From Alphaproteobacteria bacterium (GTDB taxonomy: Bacteria > Pseudomonadota > Alphaproteobacteria > CAAHEQ01 > UBA3637), in the NCBI GenBank assembly GCA_045655105.1, contig JAZOOQ010000006.1:408-64407 (forward strand): a DNA stretch of 64,000 nt, read 5' to 3'. The position numbers and the translations under genes are program-made. Every line of letters begins with the position of its first letter. Within the stretch, counting starts at the first letter, position 1. The notes below the pieces were generated by a model. It had not been told where the DNA came from. It saw only the letters and a program-made list of their open reading frames with translations, and did no database searches. Positions 11,632-31,273 of the stretch are shown piece after piece.

Positions 11632-11666
11632 TTAAACGGCACTTTTCAGTGCCGTTTAAAGTTTTT
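11632..11666. terminator. Bidirectional terminator between alr and the recombinase gene
   Basis: TTAAACGGCAC / GTGCCGTTTAA hairpin with flanking A and T runs. Confidence 0.8.
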
Positions 11667-12273
11667 AATATCCAGCATTTCTTAAATAATTATATACTGT
11701 TTTTGAACTAACGCCTAAACGTTTAGCAATTTTTGTTTTTGCTAATCCTTGTTGATAAAGATGAATAAGTTCTTTTTCTTTTCCATCAAGGATATGTGTT
11801 TTATTTTTAGATCCTTTTTTTCGACCTAATTTTTTTCCAACAGATTTTAACCGGGATAAAGCTTCTTTAGTTCGTTGACTAATCAAGTTTCTTTCAATTT
11901 CTGCTGAAAGCGAAAAAGCAAAAGCTAATACTTTACTTTGAATGTCGGATCCTAAACGATAATTATCTTTAATGGTCCATACTTTAATATTTCTTTGCAT
12001 GCAATAATTTAAAATAGTCATAACCTGAAAAAGGTTTCTTCCTAATCTTGAAATTTCGCTACAAATTAAAATATCTCCAGATTTTAATTTCTTAATGTAT
12101 TTTCCAAGTTTTCGATATTCAACATCTTTTGTTCCGCTAACTGTTTCAGTTATCCAAACAGAAACGAGAAGTTTTTCTTTTTTTGTAAATTCAATAATTT
12201 CAAATTCTTGATTTTCGAGAGTTTGTTTGTCTGTACTGACACGAATATACGCATAAATCACATGAATCTCCAT
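11665..12273 (-). CDS. Small serine recombinase (resolvase/invertase family), copy 1
   Basis: Catalytic motif YIRVSTDKQ, GDILICSEISRLGRN, SAEIERNLISQRTK, C-terminal HTH (KTKIAKRLGVSSKTVYNYL). Start trimmed to ATG 12273. Confidence 0.9.
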   Translation of the reverse strand: MEIHVIYAYIRVSTDKQTLENQEFEIIEFTKKEKLLVSVWITETVSGTKDVEYRKLGKYIKKLKSGDILICSEISRLGRNLFQVMTILNYCMQRNIKVWTIKDNYRLGSDIQSKVLAFAFSLSAEIERNLISQRTKEALSRLKSVGKKLGRKKGSKNKTHILDGKEKELIHLYQQGLAKTKIAKRLGVSSKTVYNYLRNAGY

Positions 12274-12295
12274 TTCTAAAAATGCCCAAAAAATC

Positions 12296-12311
12296 CTAAA
12301 CATATGTTTAG
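12296..12311. promoter_or_regulatory. 16-bp perfect palindrome upstream of recombinase copy 1
   Basis: CTAAACATATGTTTAG, centred on a TA/AT dinucleotide, 23 nt upstream of the recombinase ATG. Confidence 0.45.
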
Positions 12312-13409: not shown

Positions 13410-13964
13410 TCACGTTTTTAATTTAAAAAGTCCAAAAAGTGTTTCATTATCTTTATCATCTTCAATGTTTTCATCAATTAAAAAAAGATTGTAAAATTCG
13501 CCAGCACCTCTTTTACAAATAACAGCATAGTTTTCCGGATATATACCTGTGGATAACTTTTTTGCTGAAATCGCAGTGTCTTCAGATTCAATTTCTTTAA
13601 TTGAGGGAAAATTTTTTCTTCTATATTCTTTTGTTTGATTTAATGCTTGAATATGAGAAGCGATAAAACCAATTTTTGAATTTTTATTTTTTTTGAATAA
13701 GGAATGATGGATTGGAAGATAAAGTGAATCTATAAGTTCAATGTTTTCTGTGAGTGCGTCTGTTGTTTCTTTAACAACTCCAGCAATTTTATTTTGAATT
13801 GCTAAAACTCCATAATCTATTTTTTTATTTATAAGGGCTGAGACAACATTTTGTGATGTGATGAGAGGAATAAATTGATTAGTTTTCAATCCATGTGTTT
13901 TTGCAAATTGAATAGCTGCTTCTTCTGAATTTGAAAATAAATCACCTTGAAACCCGATTTTCAT
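13410..13964 (-). CDS. Stand-alone prephenate dehydratase (PDT)-domain protein without ACT domain
   Basis: MKIGFQGDLFSNSEEAA matches the PDT N-terminus (kiayqGxxGsfSeeAa). About 184 aa, ending NETLFGLFKL where PDTs have NxTRF. RBS AAGGAG before ATG 13964. The longer track ORF (to 14315) overlaps the perM promoter and start and looks spurious. Confidence 0.7.
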   Translation of the reverse strand: MKIGFQGDLFSNSEEAAIQFAKTHGLKTNQFIPLITSQNVVSALINKKIDYGVLAIQNKIAGVVKETTDALTENIELIDSLYLPIHHSLFKKNKNSKIGFIASHIQALNQTKEYRRKNFPSIKEIESEDTAISAKKLSTGIYPENYAVICKRGAGEFYNLFLIDENIEDDKDNETLFGLFKLKT

Positions 13965-15320: not shown

Positions 15321-18287
15321 TTAATCTGGTTTAATGCAATAACCTGTATAATACTCTGGCTTGTCTTTCAAAAATTCAGGTAATCCTGGTGAAAGTAATT
15401 TTATACCTTTTTCCTCTAATTCTGCACATTTGAGATTAAGATTATATAGCATTTCTAATATATCATCTGACCACAATGATTTTGGAACTCCAAATTTATA
15501 GCACTCTAAAACAGCCGCATTTAATTTATCTTGTAAATTTTTTAAATGGTTTTCGCCATGTTTTTCCATTGTCTGGTAAATATCTCTTAAAGATATTTTA
15601 CAAGTTCTACGAATTTCGTCACGTTTCAAGTAAAACTCTCTTGCACAAGTTACAACATTATCCACCAATTTTGTTATTTCTGCTTTATTTTCCTCTTTAT
15701 ATTTCTCAATATTCTTTGCAAAAGGTATTCCGAACTGAGGCCATACAAAACTATTATATGTAGTTGTGTTTGTGTATCTAGGATCTCCTTTTAGTGTAGA
15801 ACATCTTGCGGTAAACCATTTCCAATGAAAATAACTTGATAATATTCCAAAAGAGTAATCATCCTCAAATGTAAACACCATAAGTGCTGCATTAGGATGA
15901 ATTTTAGATGATACAAATTCAAATATTGGTCTTTTGGTTACTTGCCCACAAGCTATATACTTTCTAGAGACATTTATCTTATCCATAAGTGGTTTTCTAT
16001 CTCTCAAATATGTCCACCATTTATTATAATGATTGATTCTATCATATTTTTTTATATTATTTTCTTTATTTTTTTCTCTCTGTTCATCAGCAAGTTCTTT
16101 TACTTTAGGTAAAACTTTTTTTTCTATTATTTTAAACAATCTATCATATTTTTGAATTGCAAAAATATCAAGATTATTAAAATCTATAGCATATCTCCTA
16201 TACTTTGATTCTTTAGTTCCTAACAAATCATCTGCGATTAAATATGGAAACAAAACATCTTTATAGGATTCTTCTTTTTGTATAATAGATTCAGCTTCAT
16301 CCTTTGACAACAAAAAACCCTCTTGCCCGTGGATTTGGCCCTGAAAACAAGTTTTGTTATTTGTTTTTTCATTGTCATTAGTTTTTTTTAGGTCTTTTGC
16401 TTTTGATACATCAAAAATCGGTTTTAAAGAAGATGTAATACTCGCTGGATTGTACTCTGTAAAGGTTGCATTCTTCTTTTCCTCATTAGGAACAAGTAAT
16501 CTTGTTCGTTTGATTGGCTTTTTAGGCTCTTTTTGCCAATTTACAATAGATACATACACCGCAGCAGCTCCGCTCCATACTTGAGAAGATATAGCATCAA
16601 AAATTACCCCACCATGCTCTACAATATAATCTAACCCTCCAATTCTTGAATAATTTTGTGTTATGGTATTTGTTCCCACAAGTCCTGCTCGTCCATCTTT
16701 TTTCAATGTATCATGAGCTTTTCTAAACCACCATACACAATAATCTGCTCTTCCTGGAATTTCAGGATACGCAGCTCTTACTTGTGCTGTATAATCTATA
16801 CCCAGTTCCTTGTTCATATCATTATATGTAATATATGGAGGATTGCTTATTATTACGTCAGTTTCTTCCCAATCGTTAAATAATGCATCCTTGCAAACAA
16901 TATTATTATCCATATTATCGAAAGGTAGCGGATTATCAAAGGCTAAAGTCAATGATTTATCATTTCTACTCAAAAATTCATTAAAATCATCAGCCCCATA
17001 TTTTTTAGCAATAGACATCGTTACCTTTGCTATTTCAACTGCAAATTCATTTATATCCATACCAAAAAAATTTTTACTATTGATACCTGATACGAAAGTT
17101 TTTTTCAGTTTTTGAGAAGAAAACTTATCTAATATGGCTTGAAACACTTCTATTTCTAAATGTTTTAATTCTCTATAAGCTATATATAAAAAATTACCAC
17201 TACCACAAGCAGGATCCAAAACCTTAAAATTAGACAATTTTTTCAATATATTCTCATAATCTTTTTGTGTTTTTGCCTTTTCTATTTCTTCTCTGAAAGG
17301 TCTTAAAATAGTTGGTTCAACTATTCTCATAATGTCAGCTTCGGAAGTAAAGTGTGCGCCATATGCGTGACGAAGTCCTTTTTCCATGCTGTCTTCAAAA
17401 ATTGCACCTAAAATATATGGTTGGACCTTAGACCAATCCTTATCAGAAGCTTCTTTTAATGCTTGTAATTCCTCTCTATTCAATTCTATTGGATTTATTT
17501 CCTTAAATAAACCGCCATTAAAATATGAAATATTCTTAAATCTGCCACCAATTCGTTTTTGCGGATTATTCATAGATTGAAACAATTCATTAAATAAATC
17601 ATAAGATGAAGCCTTTTCTGACAAGCAATCTTCAATTATCTCCTTAAAAAAATCAGATTTAGGAAACAAATTTACATCTTCTGCAAAGAGTGCAATCAAA
17701 CATTGTAAAACAAACCTTTGAATTTGCGTCTTTTCTAGCTGTATTTCATTTTTCCGTTTAACCAAGCTATTGTATACAAAAACTAATTTATCTGCAACTT
17801 CTCTTGTAACTTCCTCTAGATCATTTCTAAATTTTGGTTTTTGTTCTTCTTTTAGGAGAAAATTAAAAGCTTCCCATCTTTGACTATCGGAAGCGAGTTC
17901 TTGTATTGAAATTTTATCAAGGGCTTCTTTTTGTATGTTCCAATTATAAATCCAGATTTCATCAAAATTAGATAGCATAATGTATGTTGGGCGTTTTGAA
18001 TACAACTCATCCCAATATTGTTTTGCTTGTCGCCAGTGATTTTCAAGATTCTCCCCACCACTCTTCATTTCAACAAGCACTTTTCCTTCTATCAGCATAT
18101 CAGAAAACTTCGTGGTTTTATCTATTTTAATTTGGTCTTCAAAATGTCCATTAGCATCATCAACATCCTTATAACCGAAAACTCGCCATAATTTGTTCAA
18201 AAAAGTCTGTCCTTCGCCTTTTTCATACTTTTTTGCTCGTTTTACGAAGTCAATAAAATCTTTAATCGCCTCTTTATCGAAATTCAT
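15321..18287 (-). CDS. MmeI-like type IIL/IIG restriction-modification enzyme (fused endonuclease, N6-adenine methyltransferase and target-recognition domain)
   Basis: N-terminal PD-ExK region like MmeI (DMLIEGKVLVEMKS ... YIMLSNFDEIWIY), SAM motif DPACGSGNFL, catalytic NPPY (IISNPPYITYN), long C-terminal target-recognition region. ATG 18287 follows AGAGGG. Confidence 0.85.
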   Translation of the reverse strand: MNFDKEAIKDFIDFVKRAKKYEKGEGQTFLNKLWRVFGYKDVDDANGHFEDQIKIDKTTKFSDMLIEGKVLVEMKSGGENLENHWRQAKQYWDELYSKRPTYIMLSNFDEIWIYNWNIQKEALDKISIQELASDSQRWEAFNFLLKEEQKPKFRNDLEEVTREVADKLVFVYNSLVKRKNEIQLEKTQIQRFVLQCLIALFAEDVNLFPKSDFFKEIIEDCLSEKASSYDLFNELFQSMNNPQKRIGGRFKNISYFNGGLFKEINPIELNREELQALKEASDKDWSKVQPYILGAIFEDSMEKGLRHAYGAHFTSEADIMRIVEPTILRPFREEIEKAKTQKDYENILKKLSNFKVLDPACGSGNFLYIAYRELKHLEIEVFQAILDKFSSQKLKKTFVSGINSKNFFGMDINEFAVEIAKVTMSIAKKYGADDFNEFLSRNDKSLTLAFDNPLPFDNMDNNIVCKDALFNDWEETDVIISNPPYITYNDMNKELGIDYTAQVRAAYPEIPGRADYCVWWFRKAHDTLKKDGRAGLVGTNTITQNYSRIGGLDYIVEHGGVIFDAISSQVWSGAAAVYVSIVNWQKEPKKPIKRTRLLVPNEEKKNATFTEYNPASITSSLKPIFDVSKAKDLKKTNDNEKTNNKTCFQGQIHGQEGFLLSKDEAESIIQKEESYKDVLFPYLIADDLLGTKESKYRRYAIDFNNLDIFAIQKYDRLFKIIEKKVLPKVKELADEQREKNKENNIKKYDRINHYNKWWTYLRDRKPLMDKINVSRKYIACGQVTKRPIFEFVSSKIHPNAALMVFTFEDDYSFGILSSYFHWKWFTARCSTLKGDPRYTNTTTYNSFVWPQFGIPFAKNIEKYKEENKAEITKLVDNVVTCAREFYLKRDEIRRTCKISLRDIYQTMEKHGENHLKNLQDKLNAAVLECYKFGVPKSLWSDDILEMLYNLNLKCAELEEKGIKLLSPGLPEFLKDKPEYYTGYCIKPD

Positions 18288-18474
18288 GGTATAACCCTCT
18301 GTAAGTTGATGATTACAAGCTCTTAATATTACCTTATACAGATAATTAATAATCAAGTCAAACATTTGATATTAAAAATACAGCATTTAAATTTTACTCT
18401 CGAACTTGCAAATTAAGGATAAGCATATCTCGTATAACCTTAGAAAACCCTTTGATTGATAGATTCTTTAAACG

Positions 18475-25673: not shown

Positions 25674-25701
25674 ATGTATGTATCAGATGAAAGGAAAAAA
25701 A

Positions 25702-27558
25702 ATGACAGAAGAAAAAATAGAATTTAAGGCCGAGGTTAGTAAGGTTTTAGATATTGTGATTCACTCTTTGTATTCGAATAAAGAGATTTTTTTAAGAGAA
25801 TTAATTTCAAATGCATCTGATGCTTCCGATAAGTTAAGATATGCCTTATTATTGCATCCTGAATTAGCATCAAAAACAGGTGAATTTAAAATTATTTTAT
25901 CCCCTGATAAATTGAATAAAACCTTAACAATTACCGATAATGGAATCGGTATGAATAAAGAAGATTTAATCAATCATTTGGGAACAATTGCAAGATCTGG
26001 TTCTGCTGAATTTATTAAATCATTAACAGGCAATAAACAAAAAGATATGGCGCTTATTGGCCAATTTGGTGTGGGATTTTATTCTGCCTTTATGGTTGCT
26101 GATAAAGTTACTGTTAAAACAAAAAAAGCAGGAGATGATAAAGGATACATTTGGGTGTCATCTGGTGCTGAGTCTTTTACAATTGAAGAAGATGATTCTT
26201 TGCCGATTGGAACAAGCATTATTCTTTCATTAAAACCAGATGATGAAGAGTTTTTAGAACCTATTCGTTTACGCCATTTGGTTCGTCAATATTCAGATCA
26301 TATTTCAATTCCAATTATTTTGAAAGAAGGCGCAAAAGAAGAAACAATTAACTCTGCAAGTGCTCTTTGGACGCGTTCAAAATCTGAAATTACAACAGAG
26401 CAATATAAAGATTTTTATCAATCTGTTTCTCATGCCTTTGATGAGCCATGGATGACAATGCATTATAAAGCAGAAGGAACGATTGATTATACAGCATTAT
26501 TATTTGTTCCAACAAAGCCTCCATTTAATCTTTTTCAACCTGACAGAAAATCAAATATTCAACTTTATGTGAATAGAGTTTTTATTTCTGATGATTTGCC
26601 AGAATTAATGCCATTTTTCTTAAGATTTATGACTGGTGTGATTGATACAAATGATTTGCCATTAAATGTATCTAGAGAAATGCTTCAAAAAACACCTGTG
26701 ATGCAAAAAATTAAAAAAGGCATTGTTAAACGTATTTTAAACGAGCTTAAAAAACGATCTGAAAATAAAGAAGATTATAAAAAGTTTTGGGATTCATTTG
26801 GTATTGTTTTTAAAGAAGGTTTGTATGAACCAATTGATGAAAGATTAGAAGTGGCGGATCTTTGCCGTTTTAATCAAACAAAAGGTGATGAATTAACAAG
26901 TTTTGATGAATATGTTTCTTCGATGAAAGAGGGCCAAGAAAATATTTATTATTTAACTGGAACAAATATTGAAGCTTTAAAAAATAATCCACAATTAGAA
27001 GGTTTTGCAGCACGCGGTATTAATGTTTTATTGCTTACAGATCCTATTGATGAATTTTGGATTCAAACATATACGGAACATAAAGGCAAAAAGATTGTTT
27101 CTGTTATGCATGCAGGGGCTGATATTGAAAAAATTAAATTAGAAAATGAACCAACAGAACAAGCTCTAGATAAAAGTAAAGAAAAGGAATTAATTAATCG
27201 AATTAAAGAAACTCTTAAAGAAAGCGTTAAAGATGTTCAAGTAACAGATCGATTAACAAAAAGCCCATTTGCGTTGATTACACCTGCAGGGGTTATGAGT
27301 TTGAATCTTGAACGTTTAATGAAAGCGCATGGGCAACAAATTGCTATGAATAGTGATCGTATTTTGGAAATTAATCCGCGTCATGAAGTGATTCATAAAT
27401 TGGCCGATATGTTGGATAAAAAAGAGATGGATGATAAAATAAATGATGCTATCTTAGTTTTATTTGATCAAACATTAATTGCTGAGGGTGAACCACTTAA
27501 AGATCCTGCGGCGTTTTCAAGAAGATTAACTTCATTTGTTTTAAGTGGTTTGGTTTAA
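25702..27558 (+). CDS. htpG: Molecular chaperone HtpG (Hsp90)
   Basis: HSLYSNKEIFLRELISNASDA, GQFGVGFYSAF, and full-length Hsp90 middle and C-terminal domains. Start trimmed to ATG 25702. Confidence 0.95.
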   Translation: MTEEKIEFKAEVSKVLDIVIHSLYSNKEIFLRELISNASDASDKLRYALLLHPELASKTGEFKIILSPDKLNKTLTITDNGIGMNKEDLINHLGTIARSGSAEFIKSLTGNKQKDMALIGQFGVGFYSAFMVADKVTVKTKKAGDDKGYIWVSSGAESFTIEEDDSLPIGTSIILSLKPDDEEFLEPIRLRHLVRQYSDHISIPIILKEGAKEETINSASALWTRSKSEITTEQYKDFYQSVSHAFDEPWMTMHYKAEGTIDYTALLFVPTKPPFNLFQPDRKSNIQLYVNRVFISDDLPELMPFFLRFMTGVIDTNDLPLNVSREMLQKTPVMQKIKKGIVKRILNELKKRSENKEDYKKFWDSFGIVFKEGLYEPIDERLEVADLCRFNQTKGDELTSFDEYVSSMKEGQENIYYLTGTNIEALKNNPQLEGFAARGINVLLLTDPIDEFWIQTYTEHKGKKIVSVMHAGADIEKIKLENEPTEQALDKSKEKELINRIKETLKESVKDVQVTDRLTKSPFALITPAGVMSLNLERLMKAHGQQIAMNSDRILEINPRHEVIHKLADMLDKKEMDDKINDAILVLFDQTLIAEGEPLKDPAAFSRRLTSFVLSGLV

Positions 27559-27565
27559 AAAATTG

Positions 27566-27594
27566 AGGCGCTTTAAAAAGCGCCTCTTTTTTTT
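27566..27594. terminator. Bidirectional terminator between htpG and recombinase copy 2
   Basis: GAGGCGCTTT / AAAGCGCCTC hairpin followed by T8. Confidence 0.8.
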
Positions 27595-27597
27595 ATC

Positions 27598-28200
27598 CTA
27601 ATTTAAATTTTCTCGTTTAAGAAAGTATCGAAGAGTTGTGCGTTCAACATTAAACTCCTTGGCAATTTTAGTTTTTGAAACACCTTGTTCTAAAAGTTGT
27701 TTAATTTTATTTGCATGGTCTGAAAGTTTTAATTTTTTATTTTTAGATGAAAAGGGGCGCCCTAGTTTTTTTCCGCTGGCTTTTAAGTTTTCTAAGGATG
27801 CCTTTGTTCTTTCAGAAATAAGATTGCGCTCAATTTCAGCAGAAACACCAAATGTAAAAGCAATAACTTTTGATTGTATATCATCTCCTAATCTATATTT
27901 TTCTTTGATTGTCCAAATTTGGCATCCTTTATTTAAACAGTTTTCTAGAATTTTAAAAATTTCTAAAATCGATCGACCAAGACGAGATATTTCGCAAGAA
28001 ATTAAAATATCGCCTGGTTTCATATTAGTAAGAACTTTAAAAAGTTTTCTTTGTGTTAAATGTTTTCTAGAAGAAATGGTTTCTTCCACCCATTGCTGAA
28101 TGTCAATATTATTGTTTTTTGCAAATTTTTGTATTTCATGTTTTTGGTGAGAAACAGTTTGTTTTTCTGATGAAACACGAATATATCCGATAATAGCCAT
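27598..28200 (-). CDS. Small serine recombinase (invertase/resolvase family), copy 2
   Basis: YIRVSSEKQ, GDILISCEISRLGRS, SAEIERNLISERTK, C-terminal HTH. Clear paralogue of the 11665-12273 gene. Confidence 0.9.
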   Translation of the reverse strand: MAIIGYIRVSSEKQTVSHQKHEIQKFAKNNNIDIQQWVEETISSRKHLTQRKLFKVLTNMKPGDILISCEISRLGRSILEIFKILENCLNKGCQIWTIKEKYRLGDDIQSKVIAFTFGVSAEIERNLISERTKASLENLKASGKKLGRPFSSKNKKLKLSDHANKIKQLLEQGVSKTKIAKEFNVERTTLRYFLKRENLN

Positions 28201-28243
28201 AAAAAACTCCTTTGATAAATTTAAATGAACTGCGATTTATTTT

Positions 28244-28381
28244 AAGGAACGTTTAAATCAAACACTTTTTTTTATTAAATGGTTTAAAAACATTTTTTTT
28301 CAATCTTTGATTTTAAAAGGATTTTCTTTTAAATTAGCTCAAATAAAGATCAAAAATAAATGGTGAGAATAAACGTTCCTT
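28244..28381. promoter_or_regulatory. 12-bp inverted repeats bracketing a promoter-like segment (candidate invertible switch)
   Basis: AAGGAACGTTTA (28244-28255) and its exact reverse complement TAAACGTTCCTT (28370-28381). Between them lie TTGATT (28307-28312), a 17-nt spacer and TAAATT (28330-28335), pointing at the autotransporter gene. Confidence 0.4.
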
Positions 28382-28429
28382 TATGCTATCCAGTTAAACA
28401 TAGAATAATATGCATTTTTAGGGGGAATT

Positions 28430-31273
28430 ATGAAAAAATTATATGCAACACTTTTAACAACAAGTTTCCTTTTTTCTTTAAATACTTATGCAACAACTGT
28501 TTCTTCATTTCAAGGGTTAACAGATGCTTTAGGATCAGCTGATGCAAATGTTGTTTTTGATGCTTCTTCTGTTATAAATGTTGATGGATGGCTGACAGTA
28601 AAAGAAGGTCAATCTGTTGCACTTCAAAATATTGCCTCTTGGACAAACATGAATCAAACTTTTAAAATTTCTAATAATGAATATGTTGCAGGAACAATAC
28701 CAAGCCTTGGAAACAGCAATACATTTGGCATTGGAAAAGAAAGATTAATTATGAATTCAGGTGAGTTGAAAATTAATAGCGTTGTTGTTCAAAATAATGA
28801 CTTGTTAACTTCTTCAAGACCTAATAATCAGTATGCTTTGTGGGGATCTGCATTTATTCAAAATAAAGGGATTATTACAGAAATATCCGATTTGATAGTA
28901 AAAAATAATGATGTTAACACCTTAAAGGGGCATGATTTATGGGGTGGGTTAGTTGGAAATCTTGATGGTGGCCAAATTAAAAGCATTAAAAATACTGTTT
29001 TTGAAAACAATTCATTTTTAACACAACAAAGCTCTCCTCATGGAGCTGTTATTTATAATGGATCAAATACAGCAGGTTCTCCTTCAGTTATTGAACTTAT
29101 TGAAGAAACAGAATTCAAAAATAATCATATGTTTGCTAGCGAGAATAATAGTGGAGGTGGTCACGGTGGCGTTATTGATAACAATCAAAGAGGTGTTGTT
29201 AATAAGATACATAAAACAAAATTTATCAATAACAGCTCACAAAAACCTGGCTCAGAAGCATCAGGACATGCTTCTGGTGGAGCAATAGATAATTATCATA
29301 TTATTAAAGAAATTTCAGAGAGCGAATTTCACGGAAATTTTGTTTTTACTGAATCAAGGGATGCTCTTGTAATGGGTGGGGCAATTAAAAACCTGTATGT
29401 AAGCGCATCTCTAGATGCAGCTGGGCGTATTGATAATATTGTGGATGTAGATTTTATTGGAAATTATGCCAAAAATACTGCGGGCGAAGCCTATGGTGGT
29501 GCATTTGCAACTGGGGATGGGGCTCGTGGAGCAGCAATAACTGAAAAAATGATTAATGTGTTATTCAAAAAAAATTATGCACAAGGAGATGGGCTTGAAG
29601 ATGGTTCTGGTGGTGCATTTGGTGGTGCAATGTATAACACAGGAACAATCAAAACATTAAACGGGAAGTTTATCGAGAACTATGCTATTAGTAAATGTGG
29701 CAAAGCTCAAGGTGGTGCAATTTGGAATAAAGGCACAATTGAAAGCATTAAGGATTCAGAATTTACAGGCAACTATGCAACAGGTGGATCTGAATCATTG
29801 GGTGGTGCAATATATAATGAGGGCACAATTGGATTTGAAGGAACAAATATCTTTAAAGGCAATAAAACAGGCAATAAACTTAATGATATTTATAACACAG
29901 GAACAATCACCGTTTCAGGAGATTTAACGCTTGATGGCGGTATTACTGGAACAGGAGCTGTTACTTTTAAAGACGGCGCTTCTTTAAATGCCACATTAAA
30001 TCAAACAACAATTTTGGCAGATAGTGTTACATTTGAAGGAAATAATAAATTAAGTTTTGTGATCGGTGGAGATATTGAATCAAAAACATATGACTTCATT
30101 GAAGCTTCTTTAACAGGAAGCGAAAATGTTTCAATCAGAGAAAATGCATTATATGATTTATCCTTAACAGATGAAGGTGATATTACTGTTGGTAAAAAAA
30201 GCTCTGATGAAATTCAAAAGACTCTTGAACAAAATATGGATAAAAAATCAGCAGAAATTATCACAGCTGTTTTAAATTCGAAAGGCAGTGAAAAATTAGC
30301 TGAATTATCATCAGAATTTTCAACAATTGTTCAAGAAGGAAGTTTTGAAAAAGCAACAAAAGGGGCCAAAGAATTAGCGCCAACAGATTCAGCCGTTGTT
30401 GGGCAAGTTGCGCAATCAACAAATACATTATTGTTAAATACAATAGGAAATAGAGTTGAAAGCACAGGTCGTTCAGGTGGTGATGCATTTAAAAATTCAA
30501 GCCTTTGGATGAAAGCACTTTATTCTAATGCAGAACAAGAATCTTCCTCTTCAAGTGAAGGGTTTGAAGCAGATACAAAAGGATTTGTATTGGGAGTTGA
30601 TGGCAAAGCAACAGAAGATTTAACAATTGGGGTTGGTTATGCATATACACAAAGCGAAATTGATGCAGGATCAAGAGAAATGGATGTAGATGGCCATAAT
30701 GCTTTTGCTTATGCTCATTATCAACCAAATAAATGGTATGTAAATGGGGTTGTGTCATATGGTCAAAGTAAATATAAAGAAACCAAAACACCACTTGGAA
30801 TGGCTTTAAGAAGCGAATATGATGTTAAAACATATGGTGCAACACTTATGAGTGGATATAACCTTGAAAATGGTATTACTCCAGAAGTTGGACTTCGTTA
30901 TTTAATTGTTGATCAAGAAAGTTATAATGATGGGGTTCAAACAATTGAAACAGGTAAAACAGATTATTTAACGGCAGTTGTTGGAGCTAAGTTTAATGTA
31001 ACCACACAAATTAATGATTGGGTTGTTGAACCAAATGCCAGAATTTATGCCACATATGATTTAATCAGTGATGATACCATTGCAACAGTATCATTCGCAG
31101 AAGGAGCCGGTTCTCAAGTTAAGGGAGAAAGTTTAGATCGTTTTGGAATTGAAACGGGGTTGGGTGTTTCTGCAACACTTGACAGCATTGAGTTGAGTTT
31201 GGATTATTTAGGTGGATTTAAAAAAGATTATCAAAATCACTCTGGTATAATCAAAGCTAAATATCATTTCTAA
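28430..31273 (+). CDS. Autotransporter with Pmp-type (FxxN / GGAI) passenger repeats
   Basis: Signal peptide. At least 8 passenger units of the form F-x-x-N ... GGAIxN (for example FIENYAISKCGKAQGGAIWN, FTGNYATGGSESLGGAIYN). C-terminal beta-barrel domain from about 30500 (SLWMKALYS ...) ending KAKYHF. Confidence 0.85.
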   Translation: MKKLYATLLTTSFLFSLNTYATTVSSFQGLTDALGSADANVVFDASSVINVDGWLTVKEGQSVALQNIASWTNMNQTFKISNNEYVAGTIPSLGNSNTFGIGKERLIMNSGELKINSVVVQNNDLLTSSRPNNQYALWGSAFIQNKGIITEISDLIVKNNDVNTLKGHDLWGGLVGNLDGGQIKSIKNTVFENNSFLTQQSSPHGAVIYNGSNTAGSPSVIELIEETEFKNNHMFASENNSGGGHGGVIDNNQRGVVNKIHKTKFINNSSQKPGSEASGHASGGAIDNYHIIKEISESEFHGNFVFTESRDALVMGGAIKNLYVSASLDAAGRIDNIVDVDFIGNYAKNTAGEAYGGAFATGDGARGAAITEKMINVLFKKNYAQGDGLEDGSGGAFGGAMYNTGTIKTLNGKFIENYAISKCGKAQGGAIWNKGTIESIKDSEFTGNYATGGSESLGGAIYNEGTIGFEGTNIFKGNKTGNKLNDIYNTGTITVSGDLTLDGGITGTGAVTFKDGASLNATLNQTTILADSVTFEGNNKLSFVIGGDIESKTYDFIEASLTGSENVSIRENALYDLSLTDEGDITVGKKSSDEIQKTLEQNMDKKSAEIITAVLNSKGSEKLAELSSEFSTIVQEGSFEKATKGAKELAPTDSAVVGQVAQSTNTLLLNTIGNRVESTGRSGGDAFKNSSLWMKALYSNAEQESSSSSEGFEADTKGFVLGVDGKATEDLTIGVGYAYTQSEIDAGSREMDVDGHNAFAYAHYQPNKWYVNGVVSYGQSKYKETKTPLGMALRSEYDVKTYGATLMSGYNLENGITPEVGLRYLIVDQESYNDGVQTIETGKTDYLTAVVGAKFNVTTQINDWVVEPNARIYATYDLISDDTIATVSFAEGAGSQVKGESLDRFGIETGLGVSATLDSIELSLDYLGGFKKDYQNHSGIIKAKYHF

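Follow-up and report, generated by a model that had tools for sequence, protein, structure and literature searches.

A repeat-bounded DNA segment between an Mpi-like invertase gene and an autotransporter gene occurs in both orientations in uncultured gut Alphaproteobacteria

The intergenic region between a small serine recombinase gene and an autotransporter gene of an uncultured gut alphaproteobacterium contains an invertible switch, very likely invertase-controlled, the flipped state of which is seen between assemblies that are ~95% identical. The invertible segment is bounded by a perfect inverted repeat, lies beside an intact invertase gene and occurs in both orientations in nature with exchange of half-sites at the repeat. 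Because it lies in the opposite direction in a sister genome, we regard it as a real on/off flip-switch of a well-known kind. Taken as a whole, the segment is probably an inverton run by the adjoining Mpi-like invertase that makes expression of the autotransporter gene phase-variable.

The stretch of DNA that was analysed (the window) comprises 64,000 nt of contig JAZOOQ010000006.1 from a genome (G000) of 1,584,907 bp (1.58 Mb) with 33% G+C. The host lineage belongs to the uncultured gut Alphaproteobacteria, with MipZ and a VirB-type secretion system encoded in the window, and the genomes of its relatives are metagenome-assembled genomes (MAGs) from human, rabbit and ruminant gut. The region of interest (28201-28429) measures 229 bp and is flanked by divergent genes (Table 1). 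A search of positions 27500-28700 gave no Rfam family above its gathering score, and the matches at 27515-27660 reflect just the terminator listed in the table.

Table 1. Features of the switch locus and its surroundings (window coordinates unless a contig of G000 is given)
Feature	Position	Strand	Remarks
htpG (HSP90/HtpG)	25678-27558	+	domain match; neighbour beyond the recombinase gene
Bidirectional intrinsic terminator, common to htpG and the recombinase gene	27565-27586		9-pair stem, 6 G-C pairs, T runs on both strands
Small serine recombinase gene, 200 aa, Mpi-like DNA invertase	27598-28200	-	Pfam Resolvase PF00239 (E=9e-32) and HTH_7 PF02796
Left (recombinase-side) site TTTATTTTAAGG-AA-CGTTTAAATCAA	28236-28261		imperfect palindrome 9/12, centre AA at 28248-28249
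Left arm of the perfect 12-bp inverted repeat, AAGGAACGTTTA	28244-28255	+	read from sequence
Invertible segment including both arms	28244-28381		138 bp (126 bp between central dinucleotides); reverse-complemented in G011
Proposed mobile -35 hexamer AATCAA (minus strand TTGATT)	28256-28261	-	A-tract behind it at 28264-28271; putative function
Internal promoter of the earlier note, TTGATT-17-TAAATT	28307-28335	+	not supported as a working promoter
Right (gene-side) site TGAGAATAAACG-TT-CCTTTATGCTAT	28364-28389		imperfect palindrome 8/12, centre TT at 28376-28377
Right arm of the perfect 12-bp inverted repeat, TAAACGTTCCTT	28370-28381	+	reverse complement of the left arm
Proposed extended -10, fixed TG-n-TATCCA	28384-28392	+	outside the invertible segment; putative function
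Ribosome-binding site AGGGGGA of the autotransporter gene	28420-28426	+	3 nt before the ATG at 28430
Autotransporter gene, 947 aa	28430-31273	+	PF03797 (E=3.5e-39, residues 692-926); TIGR01414
Copies of a ~300-bp repeated element in G000	C76:3343-3644, C10:2261-2575, C56:139310-139623, C67:2520-2832, C92:15996-16291, C28:51-352		

An earlier note on this DNA had reported a perfect 12-bp inverted repeat with 114 bp between its arms in the divergent intergenic region, and its coordinates proved exact. The accompanying judgement that such a match is unlikely by chance in so short a region is fair locally, since 1.4% of 5000 shuffled versions of this 229-bp region contained a perfect inverted repeat of 12 bp or longer. 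The genome as a whole contains 219 pairs of perfect inverted repeats of at least 12 bp with a spacing of 50-300 bp (35 of them with at least four G/C), and therefore we rejected the idea that the repeat is significant by itself. It gains significance from its position beside an invertase gene and from the observed inversion. A genome search for additional inverted pairs of the 12-mer, which the earlier note had proposed, gave none: exact copies occur only at the two arms, and copies with one mismatch are as frequent as those of a reversed control pattern (30 vs 34 in 1,584,907 bp). Pairs of Mpi-type cores were not found elsewhere in G000 either. The right arm contains AAACGTTCCT, which agrees at 9 of 10 positions with ARACGTWCGT, a motif that we take to be the Mpi repeat consensus.

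Direct evidence for inversion comes from a sister genome (G011) that is collinear with the window at ~95% identity and encodes an essentially identical recombinase. Window positions 28244-28381 align with L034 4265-4129 (G011:C2:61128-61264) at 97.1% identity over 138 bp when reversed, as opposed to 65% in direct orientation; the 300-bp flanks of the segment align directly, with identities of 99% and 93%. The recombination sites of G011 are the exact hybrids that half-site exchange predicts, with TTTATTTTAAGG-AA-CGTTTATTCTCA on the left and TTGATTTAAACG-TT-CCTTTATGCTAT on the right. As is characteristic of an inverton, the repeat-bounded segment is thus found in nature in both orientations, with breakpoints at the repeats (G000 vs G011). 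Three metagenome assemblies (L180, L181 and L182) encode the identical recombinase and share the orientation of the window. This comparison between assemblies gives a tally of four window-type orientations to one flipped (G011) among five, which establishes that both states exist among close relatives. The layout of invertase-controlled phase variation of a surface-protein gene, recognized in the earlier note, finds support in the G011 inversion and in related switches at recombinase loci.

Could this be an unprogrammed event, that is, a repeat arisen by chance plus either one inversion during evolution or a misassembly of G011? The frequency of 12-bp inverted repeats in the genome speaks for this reading, as does the fact that the flipped state of this locus is seen in one assembly only, but the breakpoints fall exactly at the repeat and beside an intact invertase gene. 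Furthermore, homologous recombination requires repeats longer than 12 bp, and because such a repeat is also shorter than the usual word lengths of assemblers it is unlikely to mislead assembly. The genus holds many paralogs of the recombinase, and a paralogous locus flipped in the same way: the switch interiors of L021 (G004) and L020 (G012), from two other species with recombinases ~67% identical to that of the window, match at 92% as reverse complements vs 47% directly, with junctions inside the shared AACG core. Together with the conservation and decay of the sites described below, these observations make an unprogrammed inversion exceedingly improbable.

The sites have been kept in related switches while the interiors have diverged. 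This pattern holds for the syntenic recombinase-switch-autotransporter locus of G006 (an ortholog), for a second switch in G011, and for the metagenome contig L134, which carries AAAGGAACGTTTA at both ends of an unrelated interior. The second G011 switch has the same sites and precedes a paralogous autotransporter gene adjoining mlaE, with no recombinase gene beside it. Its counterpart in G000, which also adjoins mlaE, is a relic (C13, ~13418-13539; L137 2916-3040, minus strand): both sites are mutated and now read AAGAACAGTTTA and TAAATATTCATT, only 62 bp are left of the interior, and the autotransporter gene is reduced to its last 183 nt. Decay of the sites where the cargo gene has been lost argues against an unprogrammed inversion, as does their retention around differing interiors. 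With regard to multiple targets of one invertase, G011 has this second switch with the same sites, and in G000 we found the decayed counterpart and no further site pairs. A metagenome scan with both arms returned only two diverged loci, L134 and L135, and a scan with the 22-mer of the left junction returned no match.

Contig ends at two related switches hint at mixed orientations within samples, which again speaks against an unprogrammed inversion. The last 227 nt of L018 (G016:C193) consist of the left flank, the switch interior and then the reversed left flank, giving an apparent 24-bp inverted repeat; this hairpin end is a hint that is most simply read as an assembly path through both orientations in that sample. 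In contig G013:C66 the hairpin is formed by the recombinase-side flank, stands at the start of the contig and points the same way.

The product of the adjacent gene consists of a catalytic domain with Y6, R8 and S10 and a C-terminal helix-turn-helix. Residues Y6, R8, S10, R73, R76, E124 and R125, which are invariant among the recombinase paralogs, are present, so that an intact site-specific recombinase is encoded next to the segment. Its best family is NCBIfam NF009949 (the Mpi "master DNA invertase"), which matches residues 3-198 of 200 with 260.8 bits; the second-best family reaches 35. This result and the Resolvase and HTH_7 domains bear out the earlier description of a 200-aa serine recombinase of Hin/Mpi size. 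The curated equivalog cut-off of NF009949 is 272 bits, and because the protein misses it by 11 bits we call it Mpi-like and not an Mpi equivalog. The closest solved structures are those of Gin, Sin and gamma-delta resolvase, all matched over the full length. The sequence similarity to Gin (44 bits) is weak beside the match to the Mpi family. As the adjacent enzyme is a serine recombinase, the locus does not belong with the tyrosine-recombinase (fimS-type) switches.

It is very likely that this neighbouring invertase (27598-28200) flips the segment. The genome encodes two further Mpi-like invertases that could act on the switch. One of them lies in the window (11665-12303, minus strand) and scores 293.5 bits, which passes the NCBIfam cut-off for Mpi; since the neighbouring gene on the same strand is just 90 bp away, there is no room for an adjacent switch, and no inverted repeat was found upstream of it. 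The window also contains an MmeI-type restriction-modification gene at 15321-18365.

Each repeat arm sits inside a 26-bp hix-like imperfect palindrome. Dyad symmetry of this degree has a chance of ~0.003 for the left site (9/12) and ~0.015 for the right site (8/12). Like the sites of Hin, Gin and Cin, both consist of two imperfect half-sites around an asymmetric central dinucleotide. A centre at the CG of the palindrome AACGTT was considered and rejected, with an outer symmetry of 4/11 vs 9/12 around AA. Over 11 switches of the family the half-site consensus reads TKRAYWTAAASG followed by AA/TT, with dyad symmetry of 6-11 out of 12 positions; judged by its sequence, this is the hix/gix layout. 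At the corresponding Mpi-type core, the relatives L045 and the G010/G014 elements have AAACGTACGT. In the proposed mechanism, dimers of the invertase would bind the two sites, cut at the central AA/TT, swap the inner half-sites and so reverse the 126 bp between the centres.

Which orientation is ON depends on the location of the promoter. The earlier note had placed a sigma70 promoter inside the segment, currently pointing at the autotransporter gene. Its two hexamers, TTGATT (28307-28312) and TAAATT (28330-28335), are present and 17 nt apart, but agreement with the consensus is limited to 8 of 12 positions, which is under the scan threshold, and this assignment is probably wrong. With a score of 6.2 the candidate outranks every other sigma-70-like match of the intergenic region (at most 4.8), and in the window it is directed at the autotransporter gene. 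The segment would then be a real inverton with a complete internal promoter, ON in the window and OFF in G011, where this promoter might drive the invertase gene instead. We consider this reading unlikely: by the same rough weight matrix, the best hits in random 230-bp stretches of this AT-rich genome also have a median score of 6.2, and the candidate has no conserved counterpart in paralogous switches. Specifically, G006, the second copy in G011, L134 and the 67%-identity group offer no equivalent, while all of them contain the elements of a split promoter.

These elements emerged from a comparison of 13 alphaproteobacterial switches of the family with L135 as an outgroup. In all 13 the inner half of the recombinase-side site ends with AATCAA or GTCAA, so that on the other strand an A-tract precedes a -35-like hexamer; at this position we find TTGATT, TTGACT or TTGACA (13/13), and TCAATT in L135. 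In the gene-side flank, TG stands at +7/+8 relative to the site centre and a -10-like hexamer comes after it, again in 13/13 and not in L135. The -10-like hexamers include TATCCA in the window, TATAAT (L025), TATCAT (L024) and TCTAAT (L020-22); TGnTATCCA is identical in both G011 copies and reads TGTTATCCA in G006. Inversion would place the two elements 16-17 nt apart in every one of the 13 switches, and in L025 a perfect TTGACA-16-TATAAT is formed only upon flipping. In the un-flipped state the -35 position is occupied by TGAGAA or TGACCA, and by TTGATT in the two loci that are seen flipped (L015 and L021).

The promoter of the autotransporter gene is probably split in this way. The gene-side flank would keep the fixed TGnTATCCA, and the inner half of the left site would carry TTGATT and its A-tract. 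Inversion would set TTGATT at 28364-28369 (+), separated by a 17-nt spacer (with TG at 28384-28385) from TATCCA at 28387-28392; transcription would then start near 28399 and leave a leader of ~30 nt. The fold of this putative 5' leader is no better than that of shuffled sequence (z = +1.1). Expression of the autotransporter gene should accordingly depend on TTGATT and TGCTATCCA and not on 28307-28335. Because the split promoter is complete only in the flipped state, the window more likely represents OFF, and the first copy in G011 would be ON. We hold a split promoter with the window OFF to be moderately likely on the strength of these sequence comparisons. However, TATCCA does not end in the T that is conserved in -10 hexamers, and the sigma-70 consensus may not be that of the host; moreover, the conservation of TTGAYW might reflect a recombinase-binding half-site alone. 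A resting OFF state is a better fit than a working internal promoter to the orientation of the window, which is that of the majority (4/5 assemblies), and by analogy it fits the related pilin switches of G010, 33 of 34 of which share one orientation.

The segment might also invert without gating the autotransporter gene, for instance by tuning expression of the invertase or by carrying an operator or a terminator. In the window orientation, TTGATT reads toward the recombinase gene with TAAATC 16 nt downstream, and a promoter scan and weight matrix identified no separate promoter for that gene (27598-28200). The -10-like TAAATC is unconserved in paralogous loci, and no terminator or known RNA element was found within the segment. 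In addition, the second copy in G011 fronts its autotransporter gene with no recombinase gene adjoining. On these grounds a non-gating role is very improbable. We also rejected the variant in which the mobile TTGATT additionally drives the invertase gene in the window orientation, as its -10 partner is poor and unconserved in the paralogs. That the switch gates transcription of the autotransporter gene is, by comparison, quite likely.

The predicted product of this gene carries a Sec signal peptide, FxxN and GGA[IF] repeats in its passenger, and a C-terminal beta-barrel, and it is probably an adhesin. The earlier designation as a Pmp-like autotransporter holds for the autotransporter beta-domain (E=3.5e-39). 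The "Pmp-like" part relates to the GGA[IF]/FxxN motifs alone (6 GGA[ILVF] and 12 FxxN in the passenger), since a Pfam search with the passenger domain gave no match even at E = 10. Other switches of the family precede genes for a YadA-anchor adhesin, an opacity-type porin and UDP-galactopyranose mutase.

Several further elements came to light in these genomes. G000 contains a second candidate switch on C9 (L013 2813-2942), where TGGTGGTTTA and TAAACCACCA, with 110 nt between them, are flanked by an N6-adenine DNA methylase gene (L013 878-2809, minus strand) and another Mpi-like recombinase gene (ATG at L013 2999, to 3588, plus strand); it may render the methylase phase-variable. L060 and L081 have similar arms (AAACCACC). 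The ~300-bp repeated element of G000 (Table 1) has inverted repeats at its ends, AAAGTCGGAAATTTAA(CGGTC), and resembles a miniature inverted-repeat transposable element. At C1:5160-5481 of the same genome lies a perfect inverted repeat of 112 bp with a 98-bp spacer; it overlaps the 5' end of a resolvase-like frame (C1:4672-5235) that is broken by two in-frame TGA codons.

One end of a uniform element of 156-157 bp, bounded by Mpi-type sites, can be recognized by the 20-mer AAACGTACCTTTAATGCAAC when at most two mismatches are allowed. Counts of this 20-mer are 101 in G010 (1.6 Mb), 89 in G014, 22 in G015, 10 in G017 and one in G019, with no occurrence of the reversed control; the element was not found in G000, G011 and the other 14 genomes of the genus. 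Over 290 kb of G010 it lies upstream of 34 out of 34 type IV pilin-like genes (N-terminus ...GRSMVEMLGVLAII...), 33 times in one orientation and once flipped. Outside this group, L135 (LSPZ01000800.1, 1136-1275) has the same core within arms of ~37 bp (TTGTCAATTTAAAGGAACGTTTAAATTGACAACTTTG), and its sites are nearly perfect palindromes. This switch, with the identical core site AAAGGAACGTTTAAAT, precedes a gene with a carboxypeptidase-regulatory-like N-terminus that is typical of SusC/TonB receptors of Bacteroidota, and sites of this type may therefore exist in another phylum.

Invertible promoters are a main route of surface variation in gut bacteria and have been studied mostly in Bacteroidales. 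The present locus, with its observed flipped state, points to an Mpi-like invertase switching an autotransporter in a small-genome uncultured gut alphaproteobacterium. What stands out is an unusually clean natural demonstration of flipping together with the proposed split-promoter design. In this design the recombination half-site itself contains a -35 element, and flipping brings that element next to a fixed -10, which would explain spread to new genes. For annotation, it follows that the orientation in a MAG represents only one state of the locus. Tentatively, and with somewhat less than even confidence, we suggest that the switch forms part, as a single node, of an Mpi invertase system in the style of Bacteroides that extends across this genus of uncultured gut Alphaproteobacteria. 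If so, a portable half-promoter (A-tract and -35) built into the half-site would activate any gene equipped with a half-site and TGn/-10, and one invertase would serve local as well as distant copies; the two autotransporter paralogs of G011 are seen in opposite states. The sister species G010 and G014, with genomes of 1.3-1.6 Mb, have ~100 such switches, most of them in front of type IV pilin-like genes, and the identical core site in L135 hints at exchange of the system between gut phyla.

We found no paper on such switches in this lineage. The closest known relative is Mpi of B. fragilis (FinA/Ssr2), likewise a small serine invertase of ~200 aa from a gut bacterium that acts on short inverted repeats with an AACGT-type core around promoter-bearing segments of 100-200 bp at genes for surface structures. 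Bacteroides Mpi switches contain a complete promoter of the TAnnTTTG type inside the segment. The locus described here differs in its host, an uncultured gut alphaproteobacterium, in its autotransporter cargo, in a switch that directly adjoins the invertase gene, and in a promoter that appears to be split, with the -35 inside and TGn/-10 outside. Mpi inverts 13 regions in B. fragilis, including seven promoters of capsular polysaccharides (PMC4747536), and invertons are known in many phyla including Proteobacteria (PMC11602134). The title of a 2003 study by Patrick et al., as cited in PMC3090145, terms the B. fragilis repeats hin-like, and the hix/gix layout found here agrees with that description as far as the title goes.

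The likeness to Salmonella Hin/hix (fljBA) and to Gin/Cin lies in an invertase adjacent to or within the unit and in 26-bp sites with imperfect 12-bp half-sites and exchange at a central AA/TT; the Hin segment, unlike the present one, measures ~1 kb and contains the hin gene and a complete promoter. Hin inversion requires Fis and an enhancer. E. coli fimS (FimB/FimE) resembles our locus as a short invertible promoter segment with short inverted repeats that turns a surface adhesin ON or OFF, but it relies on tyrosine recombinases, a whole promoter, and IHF and Lrp, so that chemistry and sites differ. The nearest parallels within the genus are the 156-bp pilin switches of G010, G014, G015 and G017, which share the recombinase family and the half-site layout ...TAAASG-NN-CSTTTA..., and part of whose interior is ~76% identical to window positions 28261-28325. 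Those switches are present in ~100 near-identical copies per genome, mostly before pilin-like genes, whereas G000 is without any of them; its own switch is single-copy (plus one relic), has the core GGAACGTT instead of AAACGTAC and serves a different cargo.
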